From a virus (lineage: Duplodnaviria > Caudoviricetes), in the IMG/VR virus record IMGVR_UViG_3300027804_000063, positions 1-64,000 of that record: 64,000 nucleotides of DNA; one strand, given 5' to 3'. A model generated the notes under the pieces. That model was not told the DNA's origin, ran no database searches, and saw nothing but the letters and a program-made list of their open reading frames with translations. This document shows, piece after piece, positions 6,863 to 45,237 of the stretch (position 1 is the first letter of the stretch; the number at the start of each line of letters is the position of its first letter). Position numbers and translations under genes: made by a program.

Positions 6863-8067
6863 GCAAACTTAAAAATACTTTGACTGATATCGCCTTGGAT
6901 GCGGATGGTCACCCGAACGGAGACAAAGCATGGGCGACCGTCTCACCAGACGGCGGAGAGTTATCCACAGGGGCGATGCCGACAGAACTTGGTTCAGATT
7001 GGGACACTGTTCTCAAAGGATTTGGACTAGATCCAAATATTTTTGAAATAGTAGATGACACTGTCAAAATGTCTAAATGGCAGTCATCTAAACGCCTAGA
7101 GAACGGCGACCGCGACTTGATATGGCTTTACTCGTACAAGGCACGATTCCGACGCAAAAGTCTTACAGGTTTAAACGAGGAGCAAGTAAACGAAATCCGT
7201 AATTATGTACAGAAATGGAAACCTGTCAATAAGCCTACGGTTCCTGTCTCCAAGGAGGCGGGCGCAACAATGGTTGTTTGTTGGGCGGATCAACAGTTAG
7301 GCAAATCCGCTGGTGGCGGTGTAGACGCAACGGTTGAAAGAATTCTTGACAGTTACACGGCGACTATTGAGCGGGTTAAGGAACTTCGCAAAATAGGGCG
7401 CAATATAGAGAAGATCGCCATCGTGAACATGGGTGACCCTGTGGAAGGATGCGACGGGCAGTATTCAAGTCAATTGTTTACAGTGGAACTCACTCAACGG
7501 GAACAACTCCTGTTGGCGATAGATCTTTGGTCTCAAGGTTTACGACAACTAGCCCCATTAGCAGAGCAAGCAGAGTTCATTTCTGTTCATTGTAACCACG
7601 GTGAGTGGATGCGTCGTAACGGGAAACAGGTAACTAGTGACTCTGACAATGTGGGCGGGTTTCTTGCTGACACTGTGAAACGGATTGTAGAGGACAGACC
7701 AGAGTTAGATAAACTACAATGGAAAATTCCGCACGACGAGATGGTTATCACCTCCGTGCTATCAGGTGTCAAAGTTGCTTTCCATCACGGTCACAAGATC
7801 AGTGGTAAAGAGGTGGAATGGTTGCGCGGGCAGTCAATCAAGATTCTGCGCGAAGAAGGACGCGAACCCGATATTTGGGTGACAGCACACAGACATCATT
7901 TACAGGTACAAGATTTCGGACCTTGGTACAGGTTTCAATGCCCATCTAATGATGGTGGTTCCAAATGGTATACGGATATGACTGGTAACTGGTCTACACC
8001 GGGAACTCTTACTTTCCTTGTAGGGAAACATGACCCTAAAGGTTGGTCAGATATGGCGGTTCTTTAA
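6859..8067 (+). CDS. metallophosphoesterase-like protein
   Basis: DxQ, GD, NHGE, HHGH, AHRHH metal-binding motifs; start at ATG 6859 after GGAGG. Confidence 0.7.
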   Translation: MSKLKNTLTDIALDADGHPNGDKAWATVSPDGGELSTGAMPTELGSDWDTVLKGFGLDPNIFEIVDDTVKMSKWQSSKRLENGDRDLIWLYSYKARFRRKSLTGLNEEQVNEIRNYVQKWKPVNKPTVPVSKEAGATMVVCWADQQLGKSAGGGVDATVERILDSYTATIERVKELRKIGRNIEKIAIVNMGDPVEGCDGQYSSQLFTVELTQREQLLLAIDLWSQGLRQLAPLAEQAEFISVHCNHGEWMRRNGKQVTSDSDNVGGFLADTVKRIVEDRPELDKLQWKIPHDEMVITSVLSGVKVAFHHGHKISGKEVEWLRGQSIKILREEGREPDIWVTAHRHHLQVQDFGPWYRFQCPSNDGGSKWYTDMTGNWSTPGTLTFLVGKHDPKGWSDMAVL

Positions 8068-9341
8068 TGACGGCACAAATCATTAATGGGGACTGTCGCG
8101 AGGTTTTAAAAACTTTAAAAACAAACTCTGTAGACAGCATTGTTACAGACCCACCATATGAACTGGGTTTTATGGGTAAGTCTTGGGATTCAACAGGGAT
8201 TGCTTACAATATAGAAGTTTGGCAGGAATGTTTACGGGTTCTTAAACCCGGCGGTCATCTGCTTGCTTTTGGTGGTTCTCGCACCTACCATCGTCTTGCT
8301 TGCGCTATTGAGGATGCAGGGTTTCAGATTCGTGATCAGATTATGTGGGTGTATGGGTCAGGTTTCCCTAAGTCGTTGAACATCAGTAAGTCTATTGAAG
8401 GGCTACTGACAACTGGTTCGGCGAACAAAACAGCGTTCAAAAATCTATCTGGTGAGCAGGTAGATCGCGGTAATTGGGGGATTGCTAAACAACAGTTCAC
8501 GCACGGTCAGCGTGACACTAACTATGACGAAACCGCTGGTGGGCAACGGTTAGGGAAACTTGAACCAACCACCGATGAGGCTAAGCAATGGGAGGGTTGG
8601 GGAACTGCATTGAAGCCTGCTCACGAACCGATTGTGATGGCACGAAAACCATTGGAAGGAACTGTGGCACAAACCGTTCTTGAACACGGCACAGGTGGCA
8701 TCAACATAGATGGATGCCGTATCGGATCAGGAACAGGTGAAACAAAAACTGTTCAATACCCAGATATCCGAGGCAACAACTACAACAACGCTGAAGGCAC
8801 AGTTGAATATCAGGTGATATCGCAGGGTCGGTTTCCTGCGAACTTCATTCATGACGGTTCAGACGAAGTACTAGAACTATTCCCCGACAGCAAAGGTGGT
8901 GCTTATCCTGCCAAACGAGGTCAGGCTGTGAACACCTCATTTGCTAGTGGACAAGAAACTGAAGGCGGGTTCAGATCAATGGGCGATTCTGGTTCTGCTG
9001 CACGGTTCTTTTATTGTGCTAAAGCCAGCAAGAAAGATCGCAACGAAGGCTTAGACGGATTTGAGGAGAAACGACCCGATGAGCGCAGCGTGACTGGTAT
9101 GGGAACTTTTGAGGAGAAGGGTGTTGCCAAACAAGCCAATCACCACCCAACGGTGAAACCCACAGACCTGATGCGCTATCTGTGCAGACTGGTAACACCA
9201 CCAAACGGCACAGTCCTAGACCCATTCACAGGATCAGGCTCAACAGGTAAAGCGGCGAAACTAGAAGGCTTCAGTTTTATTGGTATAGAACAATCAGCCG
9301 AATATGTACAGATAGCCACAGCCCGCATAAAAGCCGTATAA
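8067..9341 (+). CDS. beta-class amino (m6A/m4C) DNA methyltransferase
   Basis: TDPPY before LDPFTGSG; long insert between motifs. Confidence 0.92.
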   Translation: MTAQIINGDCREVLKTLKTNSVDSIVTDPPYELGFMGKSWDSTGIAYNIEVWQECLRVLKPGGHLLAFGGSRTYHRLACAIEDAGFQIRDQIMWVYGSGFPKSLNISKSIEGLLTTGSANKTAFKNLSGEQVDRGNWGIAKQQFTHGQRDTNYDETAGGQRLGKLEPTTDEAKQWEGWGTALKPAHEPIVMARKPLEGTVAQTVLEHGTGGINIDGCRIGSGTGETKTVQYPDIRGNNYNNAEGTVEYQVISQGRFPANFIHDGSDEVLELFPDSKGGAYPAKRGQAVNTSFASGQETEGGFRSMGDSGSAARFFYCAKASKKDRNEGLDGFEEKRPDERSVTGMGTFEEKGVAKQANHHPTVKPTDLMRYLCRLVTPPNGTVLDPFTGSGSTGKAAKLEGFSFIGIEQSAEYVQIATARIKAV

Positions 9342-9364: not shown

Positions 9365-9649
9365 ATGGCATTCAACCCCAACTACACACGAGATGACATC
9401 AACTGGTATTTAGAACAAACAGACCAAACAGCCGTACTCATGGACGGCTTTGAACACGCAATCATCGGTTTCTCCCAACGCATAAACGAACCACTCCTAG
9501 CCGTCTACAACCACGACCTCATGATCCAAACACTCATGCAACGAGACGGCATGACCTACCAAGAAGCCGACGAATACATAGAGTACAACTGCATCGGCGC
9601 ATGGATCGGCGAACAAACCCCCATCATCGTAAAACCCATAGCGATGTAA
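9365..9649 (+). CDS. hypothetical phage protein
   Basis: DGFEHAIIG...YNCIGAWIGEQTP, a pattern recalled from phage hypothetical proteins. Confidence 0.7.
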   Translation: MAFNPNYTRDDINWYLEQTDQTAVLMDGFEHAIIGFSQRINEPLLAVYNHDLMIQTLMQRDGMTYQEADEYIEYNCIGAWIGEQTPIIVKPIAM

Positions 9650-9651
9650 CC

Positions 9652-10275
9652 ATGACAACAATCATCGGAATACAAGGAGACGGATACTGTCTCATAGCAG
9701 GAGACACACGAATAGCATCAGTAGACAGCAACGGTGTCGCCTACCAAATCAACACCCTCAAAACCGAAACCTCCAAAATAGCGGTAAACGGCAAATACCT
9801 GATCGGCACAGCAGGAGACCTCAGAGCCATCAACCTCCTCACCCACACCCTCAACCCACCCGTCTGCCCACCAAACCTCAAAGGCAAAAAACTAGACGAA
9901 TTCATCACCAACAAACTCATCCCCACCATCAAAGAAATGTTTGAAAAAAACGGTTACACCGTCAACGAACCAAACACCAACACAAACAAAGCCGAACACG
10001 ACTCAGAACTACTCGTAGCCATCAACCAAACCCTCTACCTCATAGACGGCGACTACTCATGGTTCACAGACCAAACAGGAATCTACGCCCTCGGCACAGG
10101 AGCAGCCTACGCACTCGGCGCCCTACACAACATGCCAACCCCCAAAAACCCTGCACAAGCCAAAAAACACGCCCTCAAAGCCCTAGCCACAGCATCCAAA
10201 TACGACCCAAACACAGGAAACCCATACCACACCCACATACAACAAACACAACAGAAAACAGATAAACCTAAATGA
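9652..10275 (+). CDS. proteasome-beta/HslV-like Ntn peptidase
   Basis: MTTIIG N-terminal Thr nucleophile, IAGDTR, SKI, GTAG, ALGTGAAYALG. Confidence 0.75.
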   Translation: MTTIIGIQGDGYCLIAGDTRIASVDSNGVAYQINTLKTETSKIAVNGKYLIGTAGDLRAINLLTHTLNPPVCPPNLKGKKLDEFITNKLIPTIKEMFEKNGYTVNEPNTNTNKAEHDSELLVAINQTLYLIDGDYSWFTDQTGIYALGTGAAYALGALHNMPTPKNPAQAKKHALKALATASKYDPNTGNPYHTHIQQTQQKTDKPK

Positions 10276-10586
10276 AACAACAACACCACAAACCCCAAGA
10301 CGATACACAAACAAAACGCTGGCAAACCCACGCAGCCTGCCGCGGAAAAACAAACCTCATGTTCCCCCAACACCACAAAGACATCACCTACATACTCCAA
10401 GCACGAGAAATATGCGCCCACTGCACCGTCAGACCACAATGCCTCAAAGAAGCCCTAGAATACCACCCAATAGACATGCACGGAGTCTGGGCAGGCTTAA
10501 CATCACGACAACTAGCCGCCGAACAAAAACGCCGAGGCATCAAACCAATCCGACCATCAATCAGCCAAATGTGGGATCTATCCTAA
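10272..10586 (+). CDS. whiB: WhiB-family Fe-S transcription factor
   Basis: C...C-x2-C-x5-C and GVWAG. Confidence 0.92.
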   Translation: MKQQHHKPQDDTQTKRWQTHAACRGKTNLMFPQHHKDITYILQAREICAHCTVRPQCLKEALEYHPIDMHGVWAGLTSRQLAAEQKRRGIKPIRPSISQMWDLS

Positions 10587-10877
10587 ACAAACCCCACACA
10601 CATCACAAAAAACAGAACCCAAAACCTCAACAGGCTTCTTACCACAAGACGGCAAACCACAAGGCTCCAACCTACGCTCACCCCGCAAATAAGCCACCAC
10701 CCCCGACAAAGGCTCAACAGGATCCGAAACCTCCAACAAAGCCCGACCCTCACTATCACGCAAACCATTCACCAACAACAAACCCACAAGTTTCTGAAAC
10801 GAAACACCCGAACCCTCAGCCAAATCCACCAAACCATTCTTCAACCACCCCGGCAAAGGAACAGTCACAAAAACCAT
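10578..10877 (-). CDS. RHH-like protein with C-terminal Zn ribbon
   Basis: ATG 10877; VTVPLPGWLKNGLVDLA then CxxxxC and CxxC; the longer track start lies in low-complexity sequence. Confidence 0.55.
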   Translation of the reverse strand: MVFVTVPLPGWLKNGLVDLAEGSGVSFQKLVGLLLVNGLRDSEGRALLEVSDPVEPLSGVVAYLRGERRLEPCGLPSCGKKPVEVLGSVFCDVCGVCLG

Positions 10878-10902
10878 ATCCCCATCCCGAGCACGCCTAG
10901 AC

Positions 10903-11088
10903 CTAAACCCCAACAGAACCACCCCAATCCCGAACCACCAACATCCCCAAATACTCACCAATAGACAAATCAAAAGCATCCGCCTGATCAACCATCAAAT
11001 TCTTGATGTCTGCGTCTATTTTTATGGTTAGGGTTGTTTTTGTGTTTGGTTGTGCGCGGTGTGGTGGGCGTCCGTGTCGTTTTTTCAT
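10903..11088 (-). CDS. ribbon-helix-helix DNA-binding protein
   Basis: GRPP hook, TLTIKIDADIKNLM...LSIGEYL. Confidence 0.7.
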   Translation of the reverse strand: MKKRHGRPPHRAQPNTKTTLTIKIDADIKNLMVDQADAFDLSIGEYLGMLVVRDWGGSVGV

Positions 11089-11202
11089 TTTGGTTTGTCT
11101 CCGGCTGGTGGGTGTTTGGCATTTTTTCGTGCGAGGTATAGTCCGAGGAGGATTCCGTGTGAGAGTCCGATGATGATGCCGTGTATGTATTGGGTCATTA
11201 TG

Positions 11203-11631
11203 TTATTGCTTTGTTATATGTTGGTTGTATGTTTGTTTGAAGTGGTCTCTGTCTGCGCCTGTGGTGAGGTTGAGTCCGACTATTCGTATTACTTGTTGTA
11301 GTTTAACTGGGATTTGGGTGTCGGGTTGTGCTGTTCCTGAGTTGACGGTGTCTCGTATGTGGCAGTACAGGTTCCATGCTTGTGTGGCGGTTGGTTCTGC
11401 GTCTGGTTGGGTTTGTTGCCATTCTTCGTGGATCATGCCGGGTGTGGGGAGGAAGCGTTCTGTTCTGTTTAGTTTAACTAGGATGAGTTCTAGTTGTTTG
11501 TATGGGCAGTCTTGGAGGACAAGATCCCATGCTGTGTAGATGGTTTGTTTTTGTTTGGGGTCGTTGGGGAGTTCTTTGTTCCACATAGAGTAGGCGAGGT
11601 TGACTAGTTCTGTGGATTGTTGTTGATCCAT
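11203..11631 (-). CDS. replicative helicase loader/inhibitor (G39P-like)
   Basis: W..VL.D.PY...FLPTPG...AWN pattern; directly downstream of the rep-like gene. Confidence 0.65.
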   Translation of the reverse strand: MDQQQSTELVNLAYSMWNKELPNDPKQKQTIYTAWDLVLQDCPYKQLELILVKLNRTERFLPTPGMIHEEWQQTQPDAEPTATQAWNLYCHIRDTVNSGTAQPDTQIPVKLQQVIRIVGLNLTTGADRDHFKQTYNQHITKQ

Positions 11632-12053
11632 TATTCGCCTGCTTTGCGTCGTGGGCTGTTGATGAAATCTTGTTGGGCGTCGCGTTTCTCTGATCGTTGG
11701 ATGAAGCCTTCTATTTTGTCGGCGTCTCGGAATATCAAATCTATACCGTTATATTTTTTTTGTTGCGGGTTGTCGCCCATATGGAATGGGGAGGATGCAC
11801 AGCCGTCTATGGCTTGGCAGGATGCTTCTATGCCGTAGTCGTGGATTGATGCGGCGATTTTGACTTTGCGTTCGTGGTCTAGGACGGCACGGGTGGAGCC
11901 CATTGTTTTAACCCAGTAGTCCCATACGATTTTGACTGCTTCGTCGGAAATTTCTTTGGCTTTGGCGTTGCGTTGTTTTGTGGAGATCCGTGGACGGGTT
12001 TGTTTAGGTTTATTTACGCCACCGTTCGGATTGGGAAACAGTTCTTCAACCAT
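11631..12053 (-). CDS. phage replication-initiator C-terminal-like protein
   Basis: VWDYW...AIDGC..SPFHMG.N...YN.IDLIFRD pattern; coupled to the loader-like gene. Confidence 0.55.
   Translation of the reverse strand: MVEELFPNPNGGVNKPKQTRPRISTKQRNAKAKEISDEAVKIVWDYWVKTMGSTRAVLDHERKVKIAASIHDYGIEASCQAIDGCASSPFHMGDNPQQKKYNGIDLIFRDADKIEGFIQRSEKRDAQQDFINSPRRKAGE
12010..12034 (-). repeat. CGCCACCGTT box copy 1 (inside rep-like gene)
   Basis: tattta-CGCCACCGTT-cggattgg. Confidence 0.85.
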
Positions 12054-12317
12054 CGCAGACACTTTACATCCTTTTACTGAAAAGGTCAACATTGGAATCT
12101 ATAAATATCTGGTCCGGCCGGACCGGACGTTGTGGCAGTAATCATCTGTGGTAGCCACGTTGATTTAACTAAAGAGGAAAAACCACTAGTGGGTTTAAAA
12201 CTTTGGAGAGTGTGAGAACCTTTACCAAATCTTTTTTGGCGGACGCGCAGCCGAAACAAGATCCGCGATTTTGGGTAGTCGCAGATTAAGATTTGATTAT
12301 TGATCGCGCGCGAAAGG

Positions 12318-33527: not shown

Positions 33528-33603
33528 GCCCTCGTATCGGCTCACTCTTATAAGGTGTTGAAACCGTAGCGGTGACACGGTGGTTCAAATCCACCCGAGG
33601 GCA
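33528..33603 (+). tRNA. non-canonical tRNA-Ile(UAU)-like gene lacking a standard D-arm
   Basis: 7-bp acceptor GCCCTCG/CGAGGGC plus A73; T-arm GGTGG-TTCAAAT-CCACC; anticodon loop CT-TAT-AA; 8-nt D region, 20-nt variable region; CCA not encoded. Confidence 0.7.
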
Positions 33604-39234: not shown

Positions 39235-39605
39235 GCGACACCCCCGACAACCTAGAAGTAGCAATGAACAAAGTCGCCGAGGACTTGACTCCGACGCGAT
39301 CGCGTGCAGTTGGGAAAAAGAAGAAAAGTGAAGACGGGACTGAACTTTCTTCAACAGCACAAGAACAGGTGTTGTTTCGCGCTTCAACTGAGGACAAACA
39401 GAAATGGGAGGAATGCGCCAAACATTTGGGTATTTCTTTGGCTGAGTTTCTGCGTGTTTCCGCAAACGAAAAGGCTGAAAATGCGATGAAAGGTTGCGAA
39501 CACCCGTTGGCTTTCCGCCGATCTTTCCCGTGGATGGAAGAATGCTTGAAATGCGGTGTACGACTCCGCAACGAAGACAGAACAACTTATCAAAATCGTC
39601 GCTAG
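39231..39605 (+). CDS. RHH-like DNA-binding protein with Zn ribbon
   Basis: VLFRASTEDKQKWEECAKHLGISLAEFLR; CEH...CLKC. Confidence 0.65.
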   Translation: MSDTPDNLEVAMNKVAEDLTPTRSRAVGKKKKSEDGTELSSTAQEQVLFRASTEDKQKWEECAKHLGISLAEFLRVSANEKAENAMKGCEHPLAFRRSFPWMEECLKCGVRLRNEDRTTYQNRR

Positions 39606-39958
39606 TGAAGCCCCGCAAACCGCTCAAACGAACGCCACTCAAACGATCAACTAAACCGATCAAGAAGAAGTCGGCTAAACGGGAAGTCGCTGATGTAGAA
39701 CGACGCATCTTTGTTGCAATGATGCTGAAAAAACACCCGTATTGTGTTGCGTGTCCTGTGTTCGCTGAACATGATGGCTTAGTTGCGTATGTTCGCCGTC
39801 CTTCGCGTGACATTCACGAGTTGGTGCGACGATCTCAGGGCGGATCAGTGGTTAGTGAAGATAACTGTATTGCTGTGTGTCGGGACTGTCACAACAGGAT
39901 CGGCAACTATCCTCAGTTGGCTTTTGATTTGGGGTTAGCGAAACACTCGTGGGAATAA
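39605..39958 (+). CDS. HNH endonuclease-like protein
   Basis: GTG 39605; CVAC...DIHE...SQGG...NCIAVCRDCHN. Confidence 0.8.
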   Translation: MKPRKPLKRTPLKRSTKPIKKKSAKREVADVERRIFVAMMLKKHPYCVACPVFAEHDGLVAYVRRPSRDIHELVRRSQGGSVVSEDNCIAVCRDCHNRIGNYPQLAFDLGLAKHSWE

Positions 39959-40055
39959 CACCCGTAGCGTTATCGGCGGTGACGGCGGTTGTAGCGAACA
40001 CCTTTGTTGTATAGCCACACACCCACTATCACAAGTAGTAAACCCGTCACGAAGT

Positions 40056-40592
40056 TCATTGTGTTTTCCCTCTCTTACAGAACTCTATATATCTAGACAT
40101 TACGAAGTCTACGAACTCAGACTTTACCACTCCGTCCTCAATATCTTTGAGAACAGTGAACTCAGGTAAACCATTGTCATCATAAACATAGGTGACACAC
40201 TTACCTGCGCTACCCCCATCATACCCATAGGTCGCTACAGTCAATGCCTCAGAAACAGGTGCGTTCGGGTTGTTCTTGTACTCACGCTCTAGATCACCAC
40301 GCTTATAACCCGTGACACTATCCACCTTTTTGAGACGAACATAACTATCCACAACGATACTTACAGTGTCAAACTCATCTAAACCATCATTGTATGCGTC
40401 ACTCAACACATCAGGTAACGACTCAAAAGGGTGACCATCTTTACCACTTTGACGACACTCAAACATATCGCCCTTCTGAAACACAACGAAAGACTGCATA
40501 TCGCTAATGCCATTGTCTTCCTTACATATCTCAGTCTTACGAAGTTGTGCGATCTTCGCTATCTTCTCTACCTCTACAAGTACATCTATCAC
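40056..40592 (-). CDS. hypothetical protein
   Basis: 178 aa globular-looking ORF. Confidence 0.65.
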   Translation of the reverse strand: MIDVLVEVEKIAKIAQLRKTEICKEDNGISDMQSFVVFQKGDMFECRQSGKDGHPFESLPDVLSDAYNDGLDEFDTVSIVVDSYVRLKKVDSVTGYKRGDLEREYKNNPNAPVSEALTVATYGYDGGSAGKCVTYVYDDNGLPEFTVLKDIEDGVVKSEFVDFVMSRYIEFCKRGKTQ

Positions 40593-40861
40593 TTTACCCG
40601 TGTGCTCCTTTTTCGTTCAACGCTAAGACACGCTCTCAACGCTTCTTGTCTAGTTTCATGTGTAGACAACGGCATATTGCCACACTGTGTATCTATCACC
40701 AACCATTTAGTAGATGGATATCTATCAGGTGATATGTCGTATCTGTCGTTCATTGTGCTCCTATCAGTAACACGATCAGGCATAGCGTCATTGTCGCTAC
40801 ACCTATCAGTGCGTCTGTGTGTATGTCTAGTAACCAACTCATATGACAAACTATATAACAC
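40589..40861 (-). CDS. hypothetical protein (start uncertain)
   Basis: GTGA overlap with the downstream gene. Confidence 0.4.
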   Translation of the reverse strand: MLYSLSYELVTRHTHRRTDRCSDNDAMPDRVTDRSTMNDRYDISPDRYPSTKWLVIDTQCGNMPLSTHETRQEALRACLSVERKRSTRVK

Positions 40862-40904
40862 TATCAGTCATATGTCAAGTATCACCCGCAAACCACCCGT
40901 AGCA

Positions 40905-41123
40905 CTACCGCTCAACCCTCCACCTCAACCCCAAACCCCTACGCCTCGCATTCGCCTCCAACCTACGAGACCGCTCAGGCTCAGGCAACAACAAATACTG
41001 CGCCACACGCTTAGCATTCTTTCTCTCACGCTCATACTCACGCCTATGCAAACGCTTCGCCTCAGAATCCTCACGATGACACCGTTGCCACTCCCTATGA
41101 TCTGAAATATTTTTGTAAGGCAC
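40905..41123 (-). CDS. Arg/Glu-rich hypothetical protein
   Basis: GTG 41123; PYKN...REWQR...RREYERER. Confidence 0.5.
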   Translation of the reverse strand: MPYKNISDHREWQRCHREDSEAKRLHRREYERERKNAKRVAQYLLLPEPERSRRLEANARRRGLGLRWRVER

Positions 41124-41355
41124 AACACCCCCTATACAAAACAAAAACAATACAAACAATCACAACACTTGCAACAACATTCTCAAAGTTCGTCACAAAC
41201 ACAAAATGCAACAACTGCAACAACCAATACACGGCGACCATCACAAACAACAAAGGCACAAGGACACGCATCACAAAACCCTTACAACATAAGGGTTATA
41301 CGACAACACACACTGCAACAAGATCATAAGCGGGGCTGTCAACCTTTTGAACACG

Positions 41356-41541
41356 TCAGATAGCAGGGGGCGGTGGTGCGACAATTTTTTTGGTCGGGTT
41401 TTGTTTTTTAGGTTTATCTGTCGTGGGGCTGTTTGGTTTTGGTTTGTAGATTTTTTCTAGTTGTTGGATTTCTTTTTGGAGTTGTTGGATTTCTTTTTCT
41501 AGTTGTTTGATTTGTTGGTCTAGGTTTTTTGGTGGTGTCAT
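41356..41541 (-). CDS. coiled-coil micro-protein (or overlap artefact)
   Basis: heptad KEIQQL repeats encoded by a 21-bp tandem repeat. Confidence 0.4.
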   Translation of the reverse strand: MTPPKNLDQQIKQLEKEIQQLQKEIQQLEKIYKPKPNSPTTDKPKKQNPTKKIVAPPPPAI

Positions 41542-41854
41542 TGGGTGTGCTTTCTGTTTGGTGGATCATGTTGATGCAGGTGAGGTAGCCGATGGTGTCT
41601 AGGAGTGTGTCGTAGTGGAGTTTTCCTTGGTCTAGGTTGGTTTTTAGTCGTGCGAGTTTGACGGAGACCATGAAGAGTAGTGCGTCGTTGAGGGTGAGTT
41701 GGTGTCCTGTGAGTGTTTTGTAGATGTTGATGACTTTGGTGTAGTCGTCTTTGGGGTGTCCGTAGGTGTTTTGTCTGTCTTGGTTGACGATTTTGTGGGC
41801 GTGTTGGAGGATTTCGGTTCCGGGGGTGGGTTGTTTTTTATTTGTGTTGGTCAT
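41414..41854 (-). CDS. DUF6378-like protein
   Basis: A..IVN.DRQ..YG.P...MV.VKLARL...H.D...D..GY. Confidence 0.75.
   Translation of the reverse strand: MTNTNKKQPTPGTEILQHAHKIVNQDRQNTYGHPKDDYTKVINIYKTLTGHQLTLNDALLFMVSVKLARLKTNLDQGKLHYDTLLDTIGYLTCINMIHQTESTPNDTTKKPRPTNQTTRKRNPTTPKRNPTTRKNLQTKTKQPHDR
41460..41510 (-). repeat. 21-bp tandem repeat
   Basis: AGTTGTTGGATTTCTTTTT repeated with period 21. Confidence 0.7.
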
Positions 41855-41861
41855 GGTTGTT

Positions 41862-42032
41862 TTAGTTTATCTGTGCTGGGTGTGTTGGGGTGTTTTTAAA
41901 AAATGGGCGCGGCTTTTGTGGGTTTTTTGTTTTGTGTATTGTGCAGTGTTTTTCTGTGGGGGCGGTTTGTCGTCGGCATGGTGTTCCGCTGTATGCGGTT
42001 TTTGCGGTGCATTTTCTGCGGTTTTGGTTCAT
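41862..42032 (-). CDS. small C3H Zn-ribbon protein
   Basis: CTAK...GTPC...HCTIH; ATGA overlap at 42029-42032. Confidence 0.5.
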   Translation of the reverse strand: MNQNRRKCTAKTAYSGTPCRRQTAPTEKHCTIHKTKNPQKPRPFFKNTPTHPAQIN

Positions 42033-42562
42033 AGGTGTGTGAGTTGTTGTTCGTTTAGGGTGAGTCTTGGTCCGTAACCGTAGTCGGTTTTTTGGGCGTT
42101 TGCGAAAAAGTTTTCGCGGGTTGTTCCGCCGATTATTTGGAATTGGGTGTTGGTGCCGATGTTTTCCCATTGGTTTTTGGGTTGGTTGCACCATACGACT
42201 AGGCATTGTTCGGTTTCGGGTTTCCATAAACCGTATTTGCAGTGTTGGGGGTCGTTGATGATCAGGTTTTTTTGGCTTGATGTTTTTATTTCGGTTGTTT
42301 TGCCGTTGATGGTGGTGTCAAAGCCGTGGTCTGCGCCTATATAGATTTCCCAGTCTATTTCGGTGTTGTAGTAGCGGGAGACGATGACTTCTCCTGCTTT
42401 GCCGAGCATGATGATGCCTTTTTCGGTTGCTCCTGCCGTGTATTTTCGGTCGGTTACTTGGTGTTCGTTTTTGTTTGCTTTACATAGGTTGGTGAATTGG
42501 CGTAGTTGTAGTACTTCTCGGGCGGTGAGGTGCATCAACGGATATTTAGTAGCAGTTTCCAT
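42029..42562 (-). CDS. PD-(D/E)xK nuclease-like protein
   Basis: GKAGE...GFD...TEIKT. Confidence 0.55.
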   Translation of the reverse strand: METATKYPLMHLTAREVLQLRQFTNLCKANKNEHQVTDRKYTAGATEKGIIMLGKAGEVIVSRYYNTEIDWEIYIGADHGFDTTINGKTTEIKTSSQKNLIINDPQHCKYGLWKPETEQCLVVWCNQPKNQWENIGTNTQFQIIGGTTRENFFANAQKTDYGYGPRLTLNEQQLTHL

Positions 42563-42588
42563 TGCGTTGTAGTTTATCTAGCGTGGGG

Positions 42589-42858
42589 CTATTTTGTTTT
42601 TGAGATGATCTGGTAACCCTCGTCGGTAACTGCCACCTGCCATTGGACTTCGCTGAATCGTTGACGCAACCCGTACACCTCTATGGTGATTTTGTTGAGT
42701 GGTTGGGTTTGTCCCACGAAATTTTTGTATACGACCCATTGGTTTGGGTTTTGTTTTACTTGTTCTACGAACAGTTGGACTCGTCCTCGTGTTTGTTTTC
42801 TTGTTACGAATGTGGGGTTTTCCACAAATTCAAGTTGGCTGAATGTTTCGGTAATCAT
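42589..42858 (-). CDS. hypothetical protein
   Basis: ATG 42858 after CAGGAG and a promoter. Confidence 0.6.
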   Translation of the reverse strand: MITETFSQLEFVENPTFVTRKQTRGRVQLFVEQVKQNPNQWVVYKNFVGQTQPLNKITIEVYGLRQRFSEVQWQVAVTDEGYQIISKTK

Positions 42859-42900
42859 TGTTATTTCTCCTGTATTTCTAGGTTTATTTATTGTGTGATT

Positions 42901-42929
42901 AGTGTAGCGGGTATTTAAACAAAAAGCAA
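42901..42929 (-). promoter_or_regulatory. sigma-A-type promoter
   Basis: TTGCTT-N17-TACACT. Confidence 0.65.
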
Positions 42930-42932
42930 CTT

Positions 42933-43649
42933 TTATTTGCCTTGTATTTGTGCTTCTTTCACATATTTTTCGTCTATATCGTATCCGATATATTTTCTGC
43001 CGAGTTTTTGGGCGGTTGTTGTGGTTGTTCCGATCCCGTTGAAGGGGTCTAGGACGATGTCGTTGGGTTGTGTGGTGAGAAGGATGCAGTTTTCTACGAG
43101 TTGTGTGGGGAATGGTGCGGGGTGGATTGTTTGCCGTTGTGGGGGGATGTCCCATATTTCGCCAAGATATTTGGGGTCTATGTTGTCACGGAATGTTTTT
43201 GGCTTGTCTTTGGATAGCCAGTAGATGTGTTCGGTGTTTGGAAGCAGATGGTCTTTGCGTATGTTGGGGCTGTTTTTGCGGTTCCAGATGATCAGTTGAT
43301 ATATGTGTGCGTTTGTTTTGTGTATGAATTCGGTGGGTAGCCGTGCTTGGTTGTTGTGTCGGCGTGGTTTGTGGTTGAAAAAGATTGATCCGTCGGGGGT
43401 GATGATTCGGTGTAGTTCGTTGATTATTTCTATTATCCAGTTTTGGTATTCGTTTTCTGGCATGTTGTCGTGGTATTCGTTGTAGTCAATATTGTGTTTC
43501 TGCCAGATTTGGTTGCTGTTTTGTGTTTTGCCGTTTTGGATACCTTTTTTGTTGTATGGCGGTGAGGTGATAATGGTGTTTATGCTGTTATCTGCAAGGT
43601 TTTTGAGTTCTTGTAGGGCGTCACCGCATTTTATGATGTTGGTCTCCAC
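42933..43649 (-). CDS. beta-class amino (m4C/m6A) DNA methyltransferase
   Basis: TSPPYN, HPAPFP, VLDPFNGIGT. Confidence 0.92.
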   Translation of the reverse strand: METNIIKCGDALQELKNLADNSINTIITSPPYNKKGIQNGKTQNSNQIWQKHNIDYNEYHDNMPENEYQNWIIEIINELHRIITPDGSIFFNHKPRRHNNQARLPTEFIHKTNAHIYQLIIWNRKNSPNIRKDHLLPNTEHIYWLSKDKPKTFRDNIDPKYLGEIWDIPPQRQTIHPAPFPTQLVENCILLTTQPNDIVLDPFNGIGTTTTTAQKLGRKYIGYDIDEKYVKEAQIQGK

Positions 43650-43676
43650 GCGGTTTAGTTTATCCAGCGTGGGACG

Positions 43677-44195
43677 TTAGAACGGTTCTCTGTTGACCGA
43701 TTTAGCGTTTCTGGTTGTTTTCTGTATGCGCCAAATTGTGTTGCTAAAAAGCGTTTCGGCTTGATCAGCGTTTTGTCCTGATAAGAGCATAATGTGGTGT
43801 TCTGATGTTTCTGGAAGTGTGTCAAACGGGTACCCCTGTAACGCACCTTCCGCATATTGGCAGTTGGATATTTCCATAAGGAACCGCCAGTCTTTTTCTT
43901 CTTGTGGGGTGTGGAGCGAGTTGAAATCTATGTAGAGACCTTTGAATGATTGAAGCGCTATTTGTGATGCTGTGTTGAATGCGATTCCGCCTGTACCAAT
44001 ACAGATGATTGTGTCGCATTGGTTTTGGAGTGCCGTAATGTCGGGGAGTTCTATGATCCCTGCTTGTTTTGCAAGTTGAACGGTTTCTGTTTTTCGGCTT
44101 TGGCTAGCGAAATAGGTTTTGTGTCCGTTCATGTGAAGGGTGAGCGCAAGTGTGCGACCCATTTTGCCGGGTGAGATTATTCCTATGTGGTTCAT
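43677..44195 (-). CDS. 6-phosphogluconate/3-hydroxyisobutyrate-dehydrogenase-type NAD-binding domain protein
   Basis: IGIISPGKMG Rossmann motif, YIDFNS; appears to lack the C-terminal domain. Confidence 0.7.
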   Translation of the reverse strand: MNHIGIISPGKMGRTLALTLHMNGHKTYFASQSRKTETVQLAKQAGIIELPDITALQNQCDTIICIGTGGIAFNTASQIALQSFKGLYIDFNSLHTPQEEKDWRFLMEISNCQYAEGALQGYPFDTLPETSEHHIMLLSGQNADQAETLFSNTIWRIQKTTRNAKSVNREPF

Positions 44196-44488
44196 CGCCA
44201 AGGTGTTGTGTCGTCTCGTGTTTTTTGTAGCGCTCCGCTTATCGCAAGGTTTTTGCCGAATGTGTTGATGGCGTGTATTACGCCAAGAGGTTCAGGAAAC
44301 CCCAATTTTTTTGTCACAACATCTAAGGTTTTTTGTTCTATTTCTTTCCAAGCGTTGAGTACGGCTTGTGCTCCTGTTGTGTGTTCGTTGTAGTAGTTGT
44401 TGGCGATGATGTCTATGCCTTGTATTTCCCATAGTTCAGGGTCGTGTTTTGTTGCCATTTGTACTCGGGTTATTTTTTCCGTATTCAT
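44192..44488 (-). CDS. hypothetical protein
   Basis: ATGA overlaps both ends. Confidence 0.6.
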   Translation of the reverse strand: MNTEKITRVQMATKHDPELWEIQGIDIIANNYYNEHTTGAQAVLNAWKEIEQKTLDVVTKKLGFPEPLGVIHAINTFGKNLAISGALQKTRDDTTPWR

Positions 44489-45237
44489 CGCGTGTTGCTG
44501 ACTCCTCCGTCAACGATGAGGGTTGATCCTAGGACATAATCTCCAGCCTGAGACGCTAGGTACACGACAGCACCAACGATGTCTTCGGGTGTTCCCGTTC
44601 TCCCAACAGGGATATATTTTGCTGTTTCATATGGGTAGTCGCGCGCGTATTGGTTCATGTTTGACGGGAATGCGCCGGGGCAGATTGCGTTTACGGATAT
44701 TCCATCTTTGATGAGTTCTATTGACATTTGGCGGGTGAGATGCAGTAATCCTGCTTTGCTTGCGTGATATCCGTAAGAATGGTCTTGATCTAAAGTAAGC
44801 CCGTTGATGGATGAAATGTTGATTACTTTTGCTAAACGATTATTTTGCTTGTATGACTTTGTCAACATTTTATAAAATCGTTGTGTAAGAAATAGTGGCG
44901 TTTTCATATTTATGTCTACTGCTGTTTCCCAATTTTCTTCCGCATATTCAGTAAAACTTTTTGCGCCTGCGCTACGACCAGCGTTATTTACGAGGATATC
45001 TATGTGGGTTTCTTTTTCTTCTATTTGTGAAACAGCCCGATCTATCCCGTCAAGGGTTGAGAGATCTTCTTTTATGTAGGTCACACTTGTTCGCTCTTGC
45101 AGAGGGTCATGAACGGAAATGTTGTAGACACGAGTGCACCCGAATTTGACTAGTCCCCTCGTAATCATTTCGCCAATTCCGCTTGAACCCCCTGTTACGA
45201 CGGCTACGCGACCTTCAAGAGAAAATAGATTTTTCAT
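44485..45237 (-). CDS. classical SDR oxidoreductase
   Basis: TGGSSGIG, NNAG, ISS, YHASK. Confidence 0.92.
   Translation of the reverse strand: MKNLFSLEGRVAVVTGGSSGIGEMITRGLVKFGCTRVYNISVHDPLQERTSVTYIKEDLSTLDGIDRAVSQIEEKETHIDILVNNAGRSAGAKSFTEYAEENWETAVDINMKTPLFLTQRFYKMLTKSYKQNNRLAKVINISSINGLTLDQDHSYGYHASKAGLLHLTRQMSIELIKDGISVNAICPGAFPSNMNQYARDYPYETAKYIPVGRTGTPEDIVGAVVYLASQAGDYVLGSTLIVDGGVSNTR

Follow-up and report, generated by a model that had tools for sequence, protein, structure and literature searches.

Two strand-composition switches of one polarity in a freshwater phage, possible fixed start sites of outward DNA synthesis

Introduction

What makes the base composition of a phage genome flip abruptly at a point where the surrounding genes all lie on one strand? 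The question is posed by IMGVR_UViG_3300027804_000063, a virus record (Duplodnaviria; Caudoviricetes) in which an earlier note, made from the sequence alone, had described a switch from an A/C-rich to a G/T-rich plus strand at about 41.35 kb, following one of the same polarity at 11.0 kb. The window analysed here is the first 64 kb of this linear, 74,185-bp IMG/VR contig, which is approximately 52% complete. We refer to the switches, which lie 30 kb apart, as junction 1 (J1, at 11.0 kb, ~11,003) and junction 2 (J2, at 41.3 kb). For comparison, we used the related records G002 (100% complete), G003 (91%) and G005 (78%), and a distant relative of 37% GC (G004). Related contigs reach 133-145 kb, with a completeness of 91-100%, and the sequencing runs holding the phage are freshwater metagenomes. 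We find that both junctions are conserved in position and flanked by a bias, concentrated at silent sites, that declines with distance, and we suggest that they may be fixed start sites of DNA synthesis.

Two switches of the same polarity

The composition of the plus strand flips at J2 from 68% A+C to 80% G+T between 41.33 and 41.39 kb. The base frequencies are A.35, C.33, G.13 and T.20 over 40,801-41,350, and A.10, C.10, G.35 and T.44 over 41,360-42,100. The cumulative keto skew is lowest at 41,329. A switch score calculated in 400-nt windows reached 0.48 at 41.3 kb and 0.545 at 11.0 kb, against a maximum of 0.24 among 200 shuffles of 30-nt blocks, confirming that the proposed switch is real. 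G+C remains near 45% on both sides of J2, indicating that both C>T-like and A>G-like shifts take part. The plus strand likewise passes from A/C to G/T at J1, and the two switches accordingly share the AC|GT polarity that had been claimed for them.

The switch at J1 can be placed at 11,002-11,005, between codons 28 and 29 of an RHH-like gene on the minus strand (10,903-11,088). All 27 of codons 2-28 carry A or C at the wobble position, and all 33 of codons 29-61 carry G or T. The flip falls at the identical codon in 10/10 diverged genomes, including lineages with a weaker bias, and the J1 switch is defined to 3 nt or less. The position of J2 is less finely placeable, because its transition zone (41,329-41,386) is mostly non-coding and is conserved, in approximately 30 related loci; the saturated wobble skew of the right arm begins near 41,386.

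Each junction is flanked by two arms. To the left of J1, the plus strand is A/C-rich over 9,365-11,002, a region that contains plus-strand genes (a 94-aa open reading frame (ORF), a proteasome-like gene and a WhiB gene) as well as minus-strand RHH genes; to the right it is G/T-rich over 11,005-12,100, with a weak tail to ~14.5 kb. The long right arm of J2 (41,387-44,500) is G/T-rich, with 69% G+T over 42,101-43,700, and its skew is strong up to ~44.5 kb and tails off by ~46 kb. The left arm of J2 is short and A/C-rich (40,880-41,328), and ends sharply near a promoter-like site at 40,878; a box-like arm of ~400-450 bp is also present in G002, with its end at the equivalent place. The A/C-rich region had previously been drawn from 40.05 to 41.33 kb, and this is borne out for 40,880-41,330 only, as the stretch 40,050-40,800 shows GC skew alone, the ordinary excess of C over G in minus-strand genes. 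Similarly, the segment 41,125-41,355, described as nearly free of ORFs, is only partly so, since it is entered by a possible minus-strand ORF of 59 codons (41,095-41,274), with a G/T-rich wobble position, weak wobble periodicity and no homologue in the relatives. An adjacent minus-strand ORF (40,905-41,159) has 92% G/T at the wobble position, against 59% and 54% at positions 1 and 2, a periodicity that indicates a true reading frame, and it has homologues in G002 and G005.

The bias follows DNA strand, side of the switch and distance

We investigated which features of the sequence the bias follows. It reaches 85-100% at wobble positions (85-91% in the long arms), against 55-78% at codon positions 1 and 2. 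The two transitions contribute to a similar extent, and purine/pyrimidine content is unaltered, as is expected for an asymmetry between G.T and A.C mispairs. To the left of J1, plus-strand genes (9,365-10,586) and minus-strand RHH genes (10,578-11,088) share one common DNA-strand bias. Across J2, every credible gene in 39.2-46.4 kb is on the minus strand, as the earlier note had pointed out, and the wobble bias is nevertheless opposite on the two sides, with 85-90% A/C in the minus-strand genes of the right arm (a small coiled-coil ORF, DUF6378, a 177-aa ORF, an N6/N4 methylase and others). Sense transcription and coding-strand bias are therefore excluded, because genes of mixed strand agree to the left of J1 and genes all of one strand disagree across J2. 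Amino-acid composition and inversion, which the earlier note had itself named as explanations that would overturn its reading, also fail: the signal is located at wobble positions, G002 is collinear across both junctions, and the switch at J1 lies within an intact conserved gene. Neither is J2 an assembly join, since DNA contigs from two independent studies span it. Thus, the bias tracks DNA strand and side of the switch, and is explained neither by gene direction nor by amino-acid content or an inversion.

The same structure was identified in related genomes. IMG/VR searches with the methylase and the proteasome-like protein returned 47 and 23 loci, respectively, of which ~30 and 17 show the same ramp and switch; a related-locus search with a 142-aa protein (11,203-11,631) and a megablast search against GenBank phages gave no match. 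In scans of whole contigs we identified exactly two AC|GT switches each in G002 (27,180 and 56,956), G003 (68,096 and 103,381) and G005 (6,696 and 112,589), with no comparable switch elsewhere in these contigs and none in the distant G004, and the sole call of opposite polarity was the outer edge of the short J2 arm. The location of the switch is kept among genomes of 70-80% nucleotide identity.

Gene content between the methylase and J2 varies among the relatives, and orthologues of this gene are therefore found at different distances from the switch. The A/C fraction at their wobble positions is 0.97 at 55 bp, 0.82-0.84 at 1.3-1.6 kb, 0.74-0.78 at 1.7-2.7 kb, 0.67 at 2.85 kb and 0.60-0.63 at 4-4.8 kb, against 0.43 in loci without the switch (Spearman -0.83, p 8e-5, for n=16 non-redundant values that are phylogenetically non-independent). 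At J1, the wobble bias of the proteasome-like gene is.95-.97 at 0.3 kb and.64-.92 at 0.73 kb, against.44-.50 without the switch. A simple equilibrium model gives a one-way pressure of ~8-17x background at the switch and a decay length of ~1.5 kb.

The RHH2 family provides a second natural experiment. To the left of J1, in this genome and in G002, its wobble positions are 97-99% G/T, whereas those of a 38% identical homologue to the right of J1, in G005 and G003, are 3-6% G/T. Codon positions 1 and 2 shift likewise (.70 on the left versus.26-.30 on the right), and the protein is rich in Val, Gly and Leu on the left and in Thr, Asn, Gln and Pro on the right. Together with the dependence on distance, this recoding indicates that the process is ongoing, positional and strong enough to recode a protein. 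Anatomy, polarity, sharpness, distance dependence and conservation are in this way directly observed at the two junctions.

Possible outward DNA synthesis from fixed points

What, then, might act at these two points? Tentatively, and with a confidence that comes near to an even chance without reaching it, we read J1 and J2 from their sequence as two fixed start sites of outward DNA synthesis, either by an origin or by other site-specific priming. New strands would be started outward on both sides of each junction in every generation, the junction acting as a replication origin or as a comparable site of specific priming or nicking. The strand running 5' to 3' outward would gain G and T by way of C>T and A>G changes, which may arise in two ways: the first few hundred to few thousand bases could be made by a low-fidelity initiating synthesis favouring G.T mispairs, or the opposite parental strand could be left single-stranded near the junction. 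An exposed lagging-strand template or displaced strand would produce a bias of the same polarity, and may contribute to it. The bias would fade where the normal replisome takes over, or where forks from elsewhere blur the direction, and purifying selection would preserve the proteins, so that the bias would accumulate at silent positions with partial recoding of amino acids. Outward synthesis from a fixed point yields the polarity, the base-sharp start, the equal transitions, the independence of gene orientation and the kilobase decay. We infer that the event is DNA synthesis, and likewise the enzyme that may perform it.

At both junctions the G/T-rich strand runs 5' to 3' away from the site, as would the leading strands of an origin if, following PMC6159521 and PMC3167613, G/T enrichment is taken to mark the leading strand. 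Leading-strand A>G and C>T changes outnumber their complements in mutation-accumulation lines of Corynebacterium (PMC6159521), and at ColE1, copied by an error-prone Pol I, A>G and C>T changes on the nascent leading strand decay exponentially from the RNA/DNA switch, with Pol I replaced by Pol III across at least 1.3 kb (PMC3167613). A concrete model would thus be a hand-over from Pol I to Pol III, as at ColE1, carried out by host polymerases. Host enzymes would do the synthesis because we recognised no phage DNA polymerase gene: no polymerase of family A, B or C (Pol III alpha) was found in the whole records of G000-G003 and G005, although the same phage genomes (133-145 kb) carry genes for a primase-helicase, an SNF2 helicase, an exonuclease and a ribonucleotide reductase. 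Either the phage depends on host polymerases, or its own polymerase has diverged beyond recognition. The host is probably an actinobacterium, since the closest cultured matches of the primase-helicase sequence are from actinophages (~30% identity). Actinobacterial Pol I is not known to proofread, and would suit a footprint of this type.

Several observations weigh against synthesis from fixed points, or against its narrower form. The genes of the long arms mostly point towards the junction, and would meet outgoing forks head-on. Fork direction along a replichore cannot by itself explain a skew that ends within 0.5-5 kb. The abrupt and conserved end of the short J2 arm is unpredicted by a simple gradient. 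We found no clear iterons, DnaA boxes or AT-rich unwinding element common to J1 and J2, and the motif that the two junctions do share (Box B, described below) follows a pattern defined after viewing the sequences, and is a lead rather than proof. The origins of T4, T7 and lambda are not known to have skews of this kind. Furthermore, patchy skews are also found in the bacterial regions termed GRINS, where one origin per patch is implausible (PMC8256042), which favours a broader wording, that the bias arises wherever synthesis is repeatedly primed. The earlier note had proposed multiple initiation points or recurrent sites of single-stranded DNA, and polarity, base-sharp start and decay agree with this proposal, with break repair and outward transcription as competing readings.

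Alternative explanations

Recurrent site-specific breaks or nicks, acting as hotspots of recombination or gene conversion, would be a rather unlikely but substantial alternative. The 5' to 3' resected strand (plus on the right, minus on the left) would be resynthesised outward over the resection tract, and outward fill-in or strand-biased heteroduplex repair would write G and T, so that the junctions would be the single-copy counterpart of GRINS, which occur in repeated genes. This would account for the shared polarity, the base-sharp centre and the kilobase decay, and GRINS, which show the same type of skew, are tied to gene conversion (PMC8256042). Genes also turn over quickly beside J2, where the distance from methylase to switch ranges from 55 bp to 4.8 kb and a 363-bp indel is found in two runs, and an HNH endonuclease gene lies 1.4 kb away. 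However, no endonuclease is linked to the sites, and contigs cross J2 without a common end nucleotide. Deamination of the resected 3' tails was rejected, as by our reasoning it predicts the opposite polarity, and the bias would therefore have to come from fill-in synthesis or repair. In this form, breakage overlaps heavily with synthesis from fixed points, as both involve outward synthesis from a point, and differs mainly in the source of the 3' ends. We think it improbable, more so than breakage, that the cause is outward transcription (leftward sense, rightward antisense), with R-loops or bubbles exposing the non-template strand to C>T and A>G deamination, and with G-rich non-template DNA possibly reinforcing R-loop formation. 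Outward transcripts would indeed have the G/T-rich strand as their non-template strand, the left arm of J2 extends like one transcription unit from a promoter-like site (41,351..41,323) to just before the 40,878 site, and a positive GC skew downstream of promoters is the reported R-loop signature (PMC3787257). Against this, J1 lacks a promoter-like site in the sigma-70 scan, and leaves no room for two back-to-back promoters because it flips within 3 nt inside a gene; in G005 a WhiB-tRNA-Ile unit spans the switch; and no skew follows the near-consensus promoter at 40,878, so strong transcription alone is not the cause. The long arms would in addition need kilobases of antisense transcription, sense transcription being excluded. 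Contigs from RNA libraries overlie parts of both arms, and carry no strand or start information.

Selection on composition, whether for unstructured mRNA ends made only of A and C, for loss of palindromic restriction sites or for strand-specific binding of a protein or primase, is in our view very unlikely. The position is conserved across genomes 70-80% identical, and two-letter strands would be expected to have few palindromes and little secondary structure. A smooth distance law over thousands of silent sites is nevertheless hard to obtain by selection, as are the opposite recoding of RHH2 and an effect independent of gene orientation. Lastly, an artefact or accident (a chimeric assembly, an inversion, a patchwork of horizontally acquired blocks or amino-acid composition) is hardly credible: left-arm edges do match gene boundaries, and a methylase gene at 8,043-9,341 is an unskewed insertion missing from G002, but the structure recurs in dozens of independent assemblies, is bridged by contigs of two studies, is collinear with G002 at both junctions, switches within an intact gene at J1, and shows the wobble signal and its distance dependence.

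Comparison with known skewed systems

The closest known phenomenon is that of GRINS, which have tightly correlated GC and TA skews, are tied to gene conversion and are commonest in Actinobacteria (PMC8256042). GRINS are required to exceed 500 bp with mean absolute GC and TA skews above 0.15 in 150-nt windows, and the phage arms do so, with mean |GC skew| of 0.354 and mean |TA skew| of 0.45 (0.121 and 0.171 in the rest of the record). They also show the required correlation of GC and TA skews (Pearson r 0.93 in the arms, 0.04 elsewhere) with a third-position maximum. A second region of >80% DNA identity, the remaining and defining GRINS criterion, was not found by blastn in the 74-kb record. 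GRINS further resemble J1 and J2 in the intensity of their G+T versus A+C skew, in its maximum at third positions and abrupt flips inside functional genes, in an amino-acid drift between Gly/Val/Cys/Trp and Pro/Thr/His/Gln, and in being commonest in Actinobacteria, the likely host phylum of this phage. Unlike GRINS, the phage arms are single-copy, anchored at two conserved points, of one polarity and graded with distance; the GRINS paper touches only briefly on skewed regions present in one copy, and describes neither an anchor point nor a gradient (PMC8256042). The phage skew is thus best filed as a single-copy, point-anchored variant of the GRINS phenomenon.

The Pol I footprint at ColE1 (Allen et al., NAR 2011, PMC3167613) resembles the phage arms in its exact start nucleotide, its A>G and C>T changes on the outward strand and its approximately exponential decay over ~1-3 kb. 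It differs in being a unidirectional laboratory system with an engineered error-prone polymerase in which new mutations were measured, whereas the phage shows a natural, bidirectional equilibrium composition, known here from sequence alone. The jump at bacterial oriC, the heavy/light gradient of vertebrate mitochondria (also graded with exposure) and the up-jumps at human origins likewise involve a transition-based G/T-rich leading or exposed strand. In the phage, however, the magnitude is 5-20x that of bacterial chromosomes and the range only 0.5-5 kb, and there are two jumps of the same polarity with no sharp opposite jump between them and a nearly unskewed genome beyond. The T4 R-loop origins oriF and oriG and GC-skewed R-loop promoters (PMC3016281; PMC3787257) resemble J2 in having a promoter-like site with a G-rich non-template strand downstream; J1 has no such site in the sigma-70 scan, and T4 origins are not known to have a skew comparable to that of the phage.

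What this phage family adds is a rule of two sites per genome, a fixed polarity, resolution to 3 nt, a decay length, the recoding of one gene family according to its side of the switch, and a candidate motif. With two sites, one polarity and natural experiments, this is the cleanest case so far of a silent-site G+T versus A+C skew, turning an oddity of composition into a testable model of site-started, one-strand mutation, and showing that mutation acting locally can recode entire proteins (RHH2). Were the sites origins or priming sites, origins could be mapped in uncultured phages from sequence alone. A wider proposal, which is possible but which we hold with some doubt, is that fixed synthesis starts are readable from sequence at near single-nucleotide resolution, that low-fidelity initiation (for example by host Pol I before the hand-over) rewrites silent sites around them in a gradient that declines to either side, and that the same process at origins, breaks and conversion tracts causes GRINS.

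Sequence elements at the junctions

We searched the junctions for elements that might specify the switch. Both motifs named previously at J2, GCGGGGCT (41,330-41,337) and the near-box GGCGGTGGTGCG (41,369-41,380), are present and conserved in the relatives. The first of these proved to belong to a genome-wide family rather than to the switch. It overlaps Box A (CGGGGCTGTCAACC, 41,331-41,344, plus strand; CGGGRCT..CAACC), which overlaps a minus-strand promoter-like site (TTCAAA-17-TATGAT, 41,351..41,323) at the start of the left arm of J2. CGGGRCT-NN-CAACC-like sites with up to 2 mismatches occur 18 times against 7 expected, at 41,331-41,344 and at 17 further positions (for example 12,497; 12,616; 22,096; 26,164; 29,855; and 36,801), and Box A was rejected as a switch-specific motif because of this spread. 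The CGGGRCT-NN-CAACC-like motif is probably an operator or promoter element of this phage.

The alignment of the two junctions, suggested earlier as a way of finding a shared motif, produced a candidate that begins inside GGCGGTGGTGCG, in a local alignment with p ~0.02. This motif, Box B, follows the pattern TGCG-N2-4-T5-8-N0-1-KGG, and is found on the plus strand at J2 (TGCGACAATTTTTTTGG, 41,377-41,393) and at J1 (TGCGTCTATTTTTATGG, 11,011-11,027, within the RHH coding sequence). These are its only 2 matches in the 74-kb record (starting at 11,011 and 41,377), each just to the right of a switch, and its chance occurrence is 0.0014 per 60 nt of G/T-rich sequence. Box B was also identified at J1 of G002, at J2 of G003 and at both junctions of G005, with one extra match in G005, 1.6 kb from J2. 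The J1 switch of G005 lies ~420 nt from its place in the gene order of the present genome, and Box B still adjoins it. A further motif, GGTTGA(N)CAG, was discarded as weak, with an estimated chance of ~0.05-0.1, and is missing from J1 of G003 and G005.

We additionally identified a conserved hairpin with a T-rich run on the minus strand (AACCCTTATGTTGTAAGGGTT, 41,283-41,303), a possible terminator or 5' stem-loop for which the terminator scan made no call. Three tandem 21-nt units at 41,452-41,513, within the small coiled-coil ORF (41,356-41,541), are also present in G002 and G005, and are either iteron-like or merely code for coiled-coil heptads. Two 21-nt direct repeats with a spacing of 24 nt occur at 11,140-11,184, in a 37-codon membrane ORF (11,088-11,198), ~140-180 nt to the right of the J1 switch, and the 21-nt units of J2 lie at a similar distance from theirs. 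A near-consensus sigma-70-type promoter (TTGACA-17-TATAGT, 11/12) is present on the minus strand at 40,850-40,878, at the end of the short J2 arm, with no skew downstream; the sigma-70 scan identified no promoter-like site at J1.

Other structural features were considered and rejected. J1 and J2 are not mutual repeats, as both sets of arms matched only themselves in blastn searches of the whole 74-kb record and short matches between them were at chance level, and only low-complexity partial complementarity was found in place of a large palindrome or hairpin telomere. A physical end, such as a cos site or terminal-repeat boundary, is contradicted by the contigs of two studies that bridge J2 and by the scattered ends of related contigs. 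Summed contig depth in run X7 is ~2x higher to the left of J2 than to the right, but these depths sum strains and are not usable. A tRNA or attP-like site at the junctions was likewise rejected, as the window contains none; ARAGORN detected no tRNA, and no Rfam family was found, anywhere in the 64 kb; the ARAGORN negative includes a tRNA-like stretch at 33,528-33,603. A tRNA-Ile(UAU) lies ~40 nt from the J1 switch in G005 (L092 12,628-12,701) and G003 (L085 3,268-3,341). We rejected it as a sign of a rightward promoter, since it is more simply read as the final gene of the plus-strand WhiB unit.

Gene content and reading frames

The genes of the window include a WhiB-like gene, several DNA methylases, an SNF2 helicase, a Toprim/AAA primase-helicase and ribonucleotide reductase, and no phage-encoded NucS mismatch endonuclease was found. 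Near J2, Pfam confirmed DUF6378 (41,414-41,854), the N6/N4 methylase (42,933-43,649) and an NAD-binding protein (43,677-44,201). The HNH endonuclease gene (39,494-39,958, plus strand) lies on the strand opposite to its neighbours. The methylase at 8,043-9,341 (N6/N4, 432 aa) adjoins the left arm of J1 and is unskewed, and has no counterpart in G002, where there is an 80-bp gap; this is consistent with a recent insertion that has yet to acquire the bias. A variant present in two runs (one DNA and one RNA library) has 42,597-42,959 (363 bp) replaced by 7 other letters, and loses an 89-aa ORF of the long J2 arm.

Finally, the skew has consequences for annotation and phylogeny, as A/C-rich strands lack stop codons and produce long false ORFs and stop-free extensions, among which the wobble periodicity reveals the real frames. 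Such stretches were identified at 41,414-41,541, 10,412-10,900 (plus strand), 40,431-41,105 (plus strand) and 42,859-43,155 (minus strand). They include a 162-codon plus-strand ORF that runs across the RHH2 gene, and a low-complexity tail of 45 residues on the DUF6378 ORF, which overlaps the real small ORF at 41,356-41,541.

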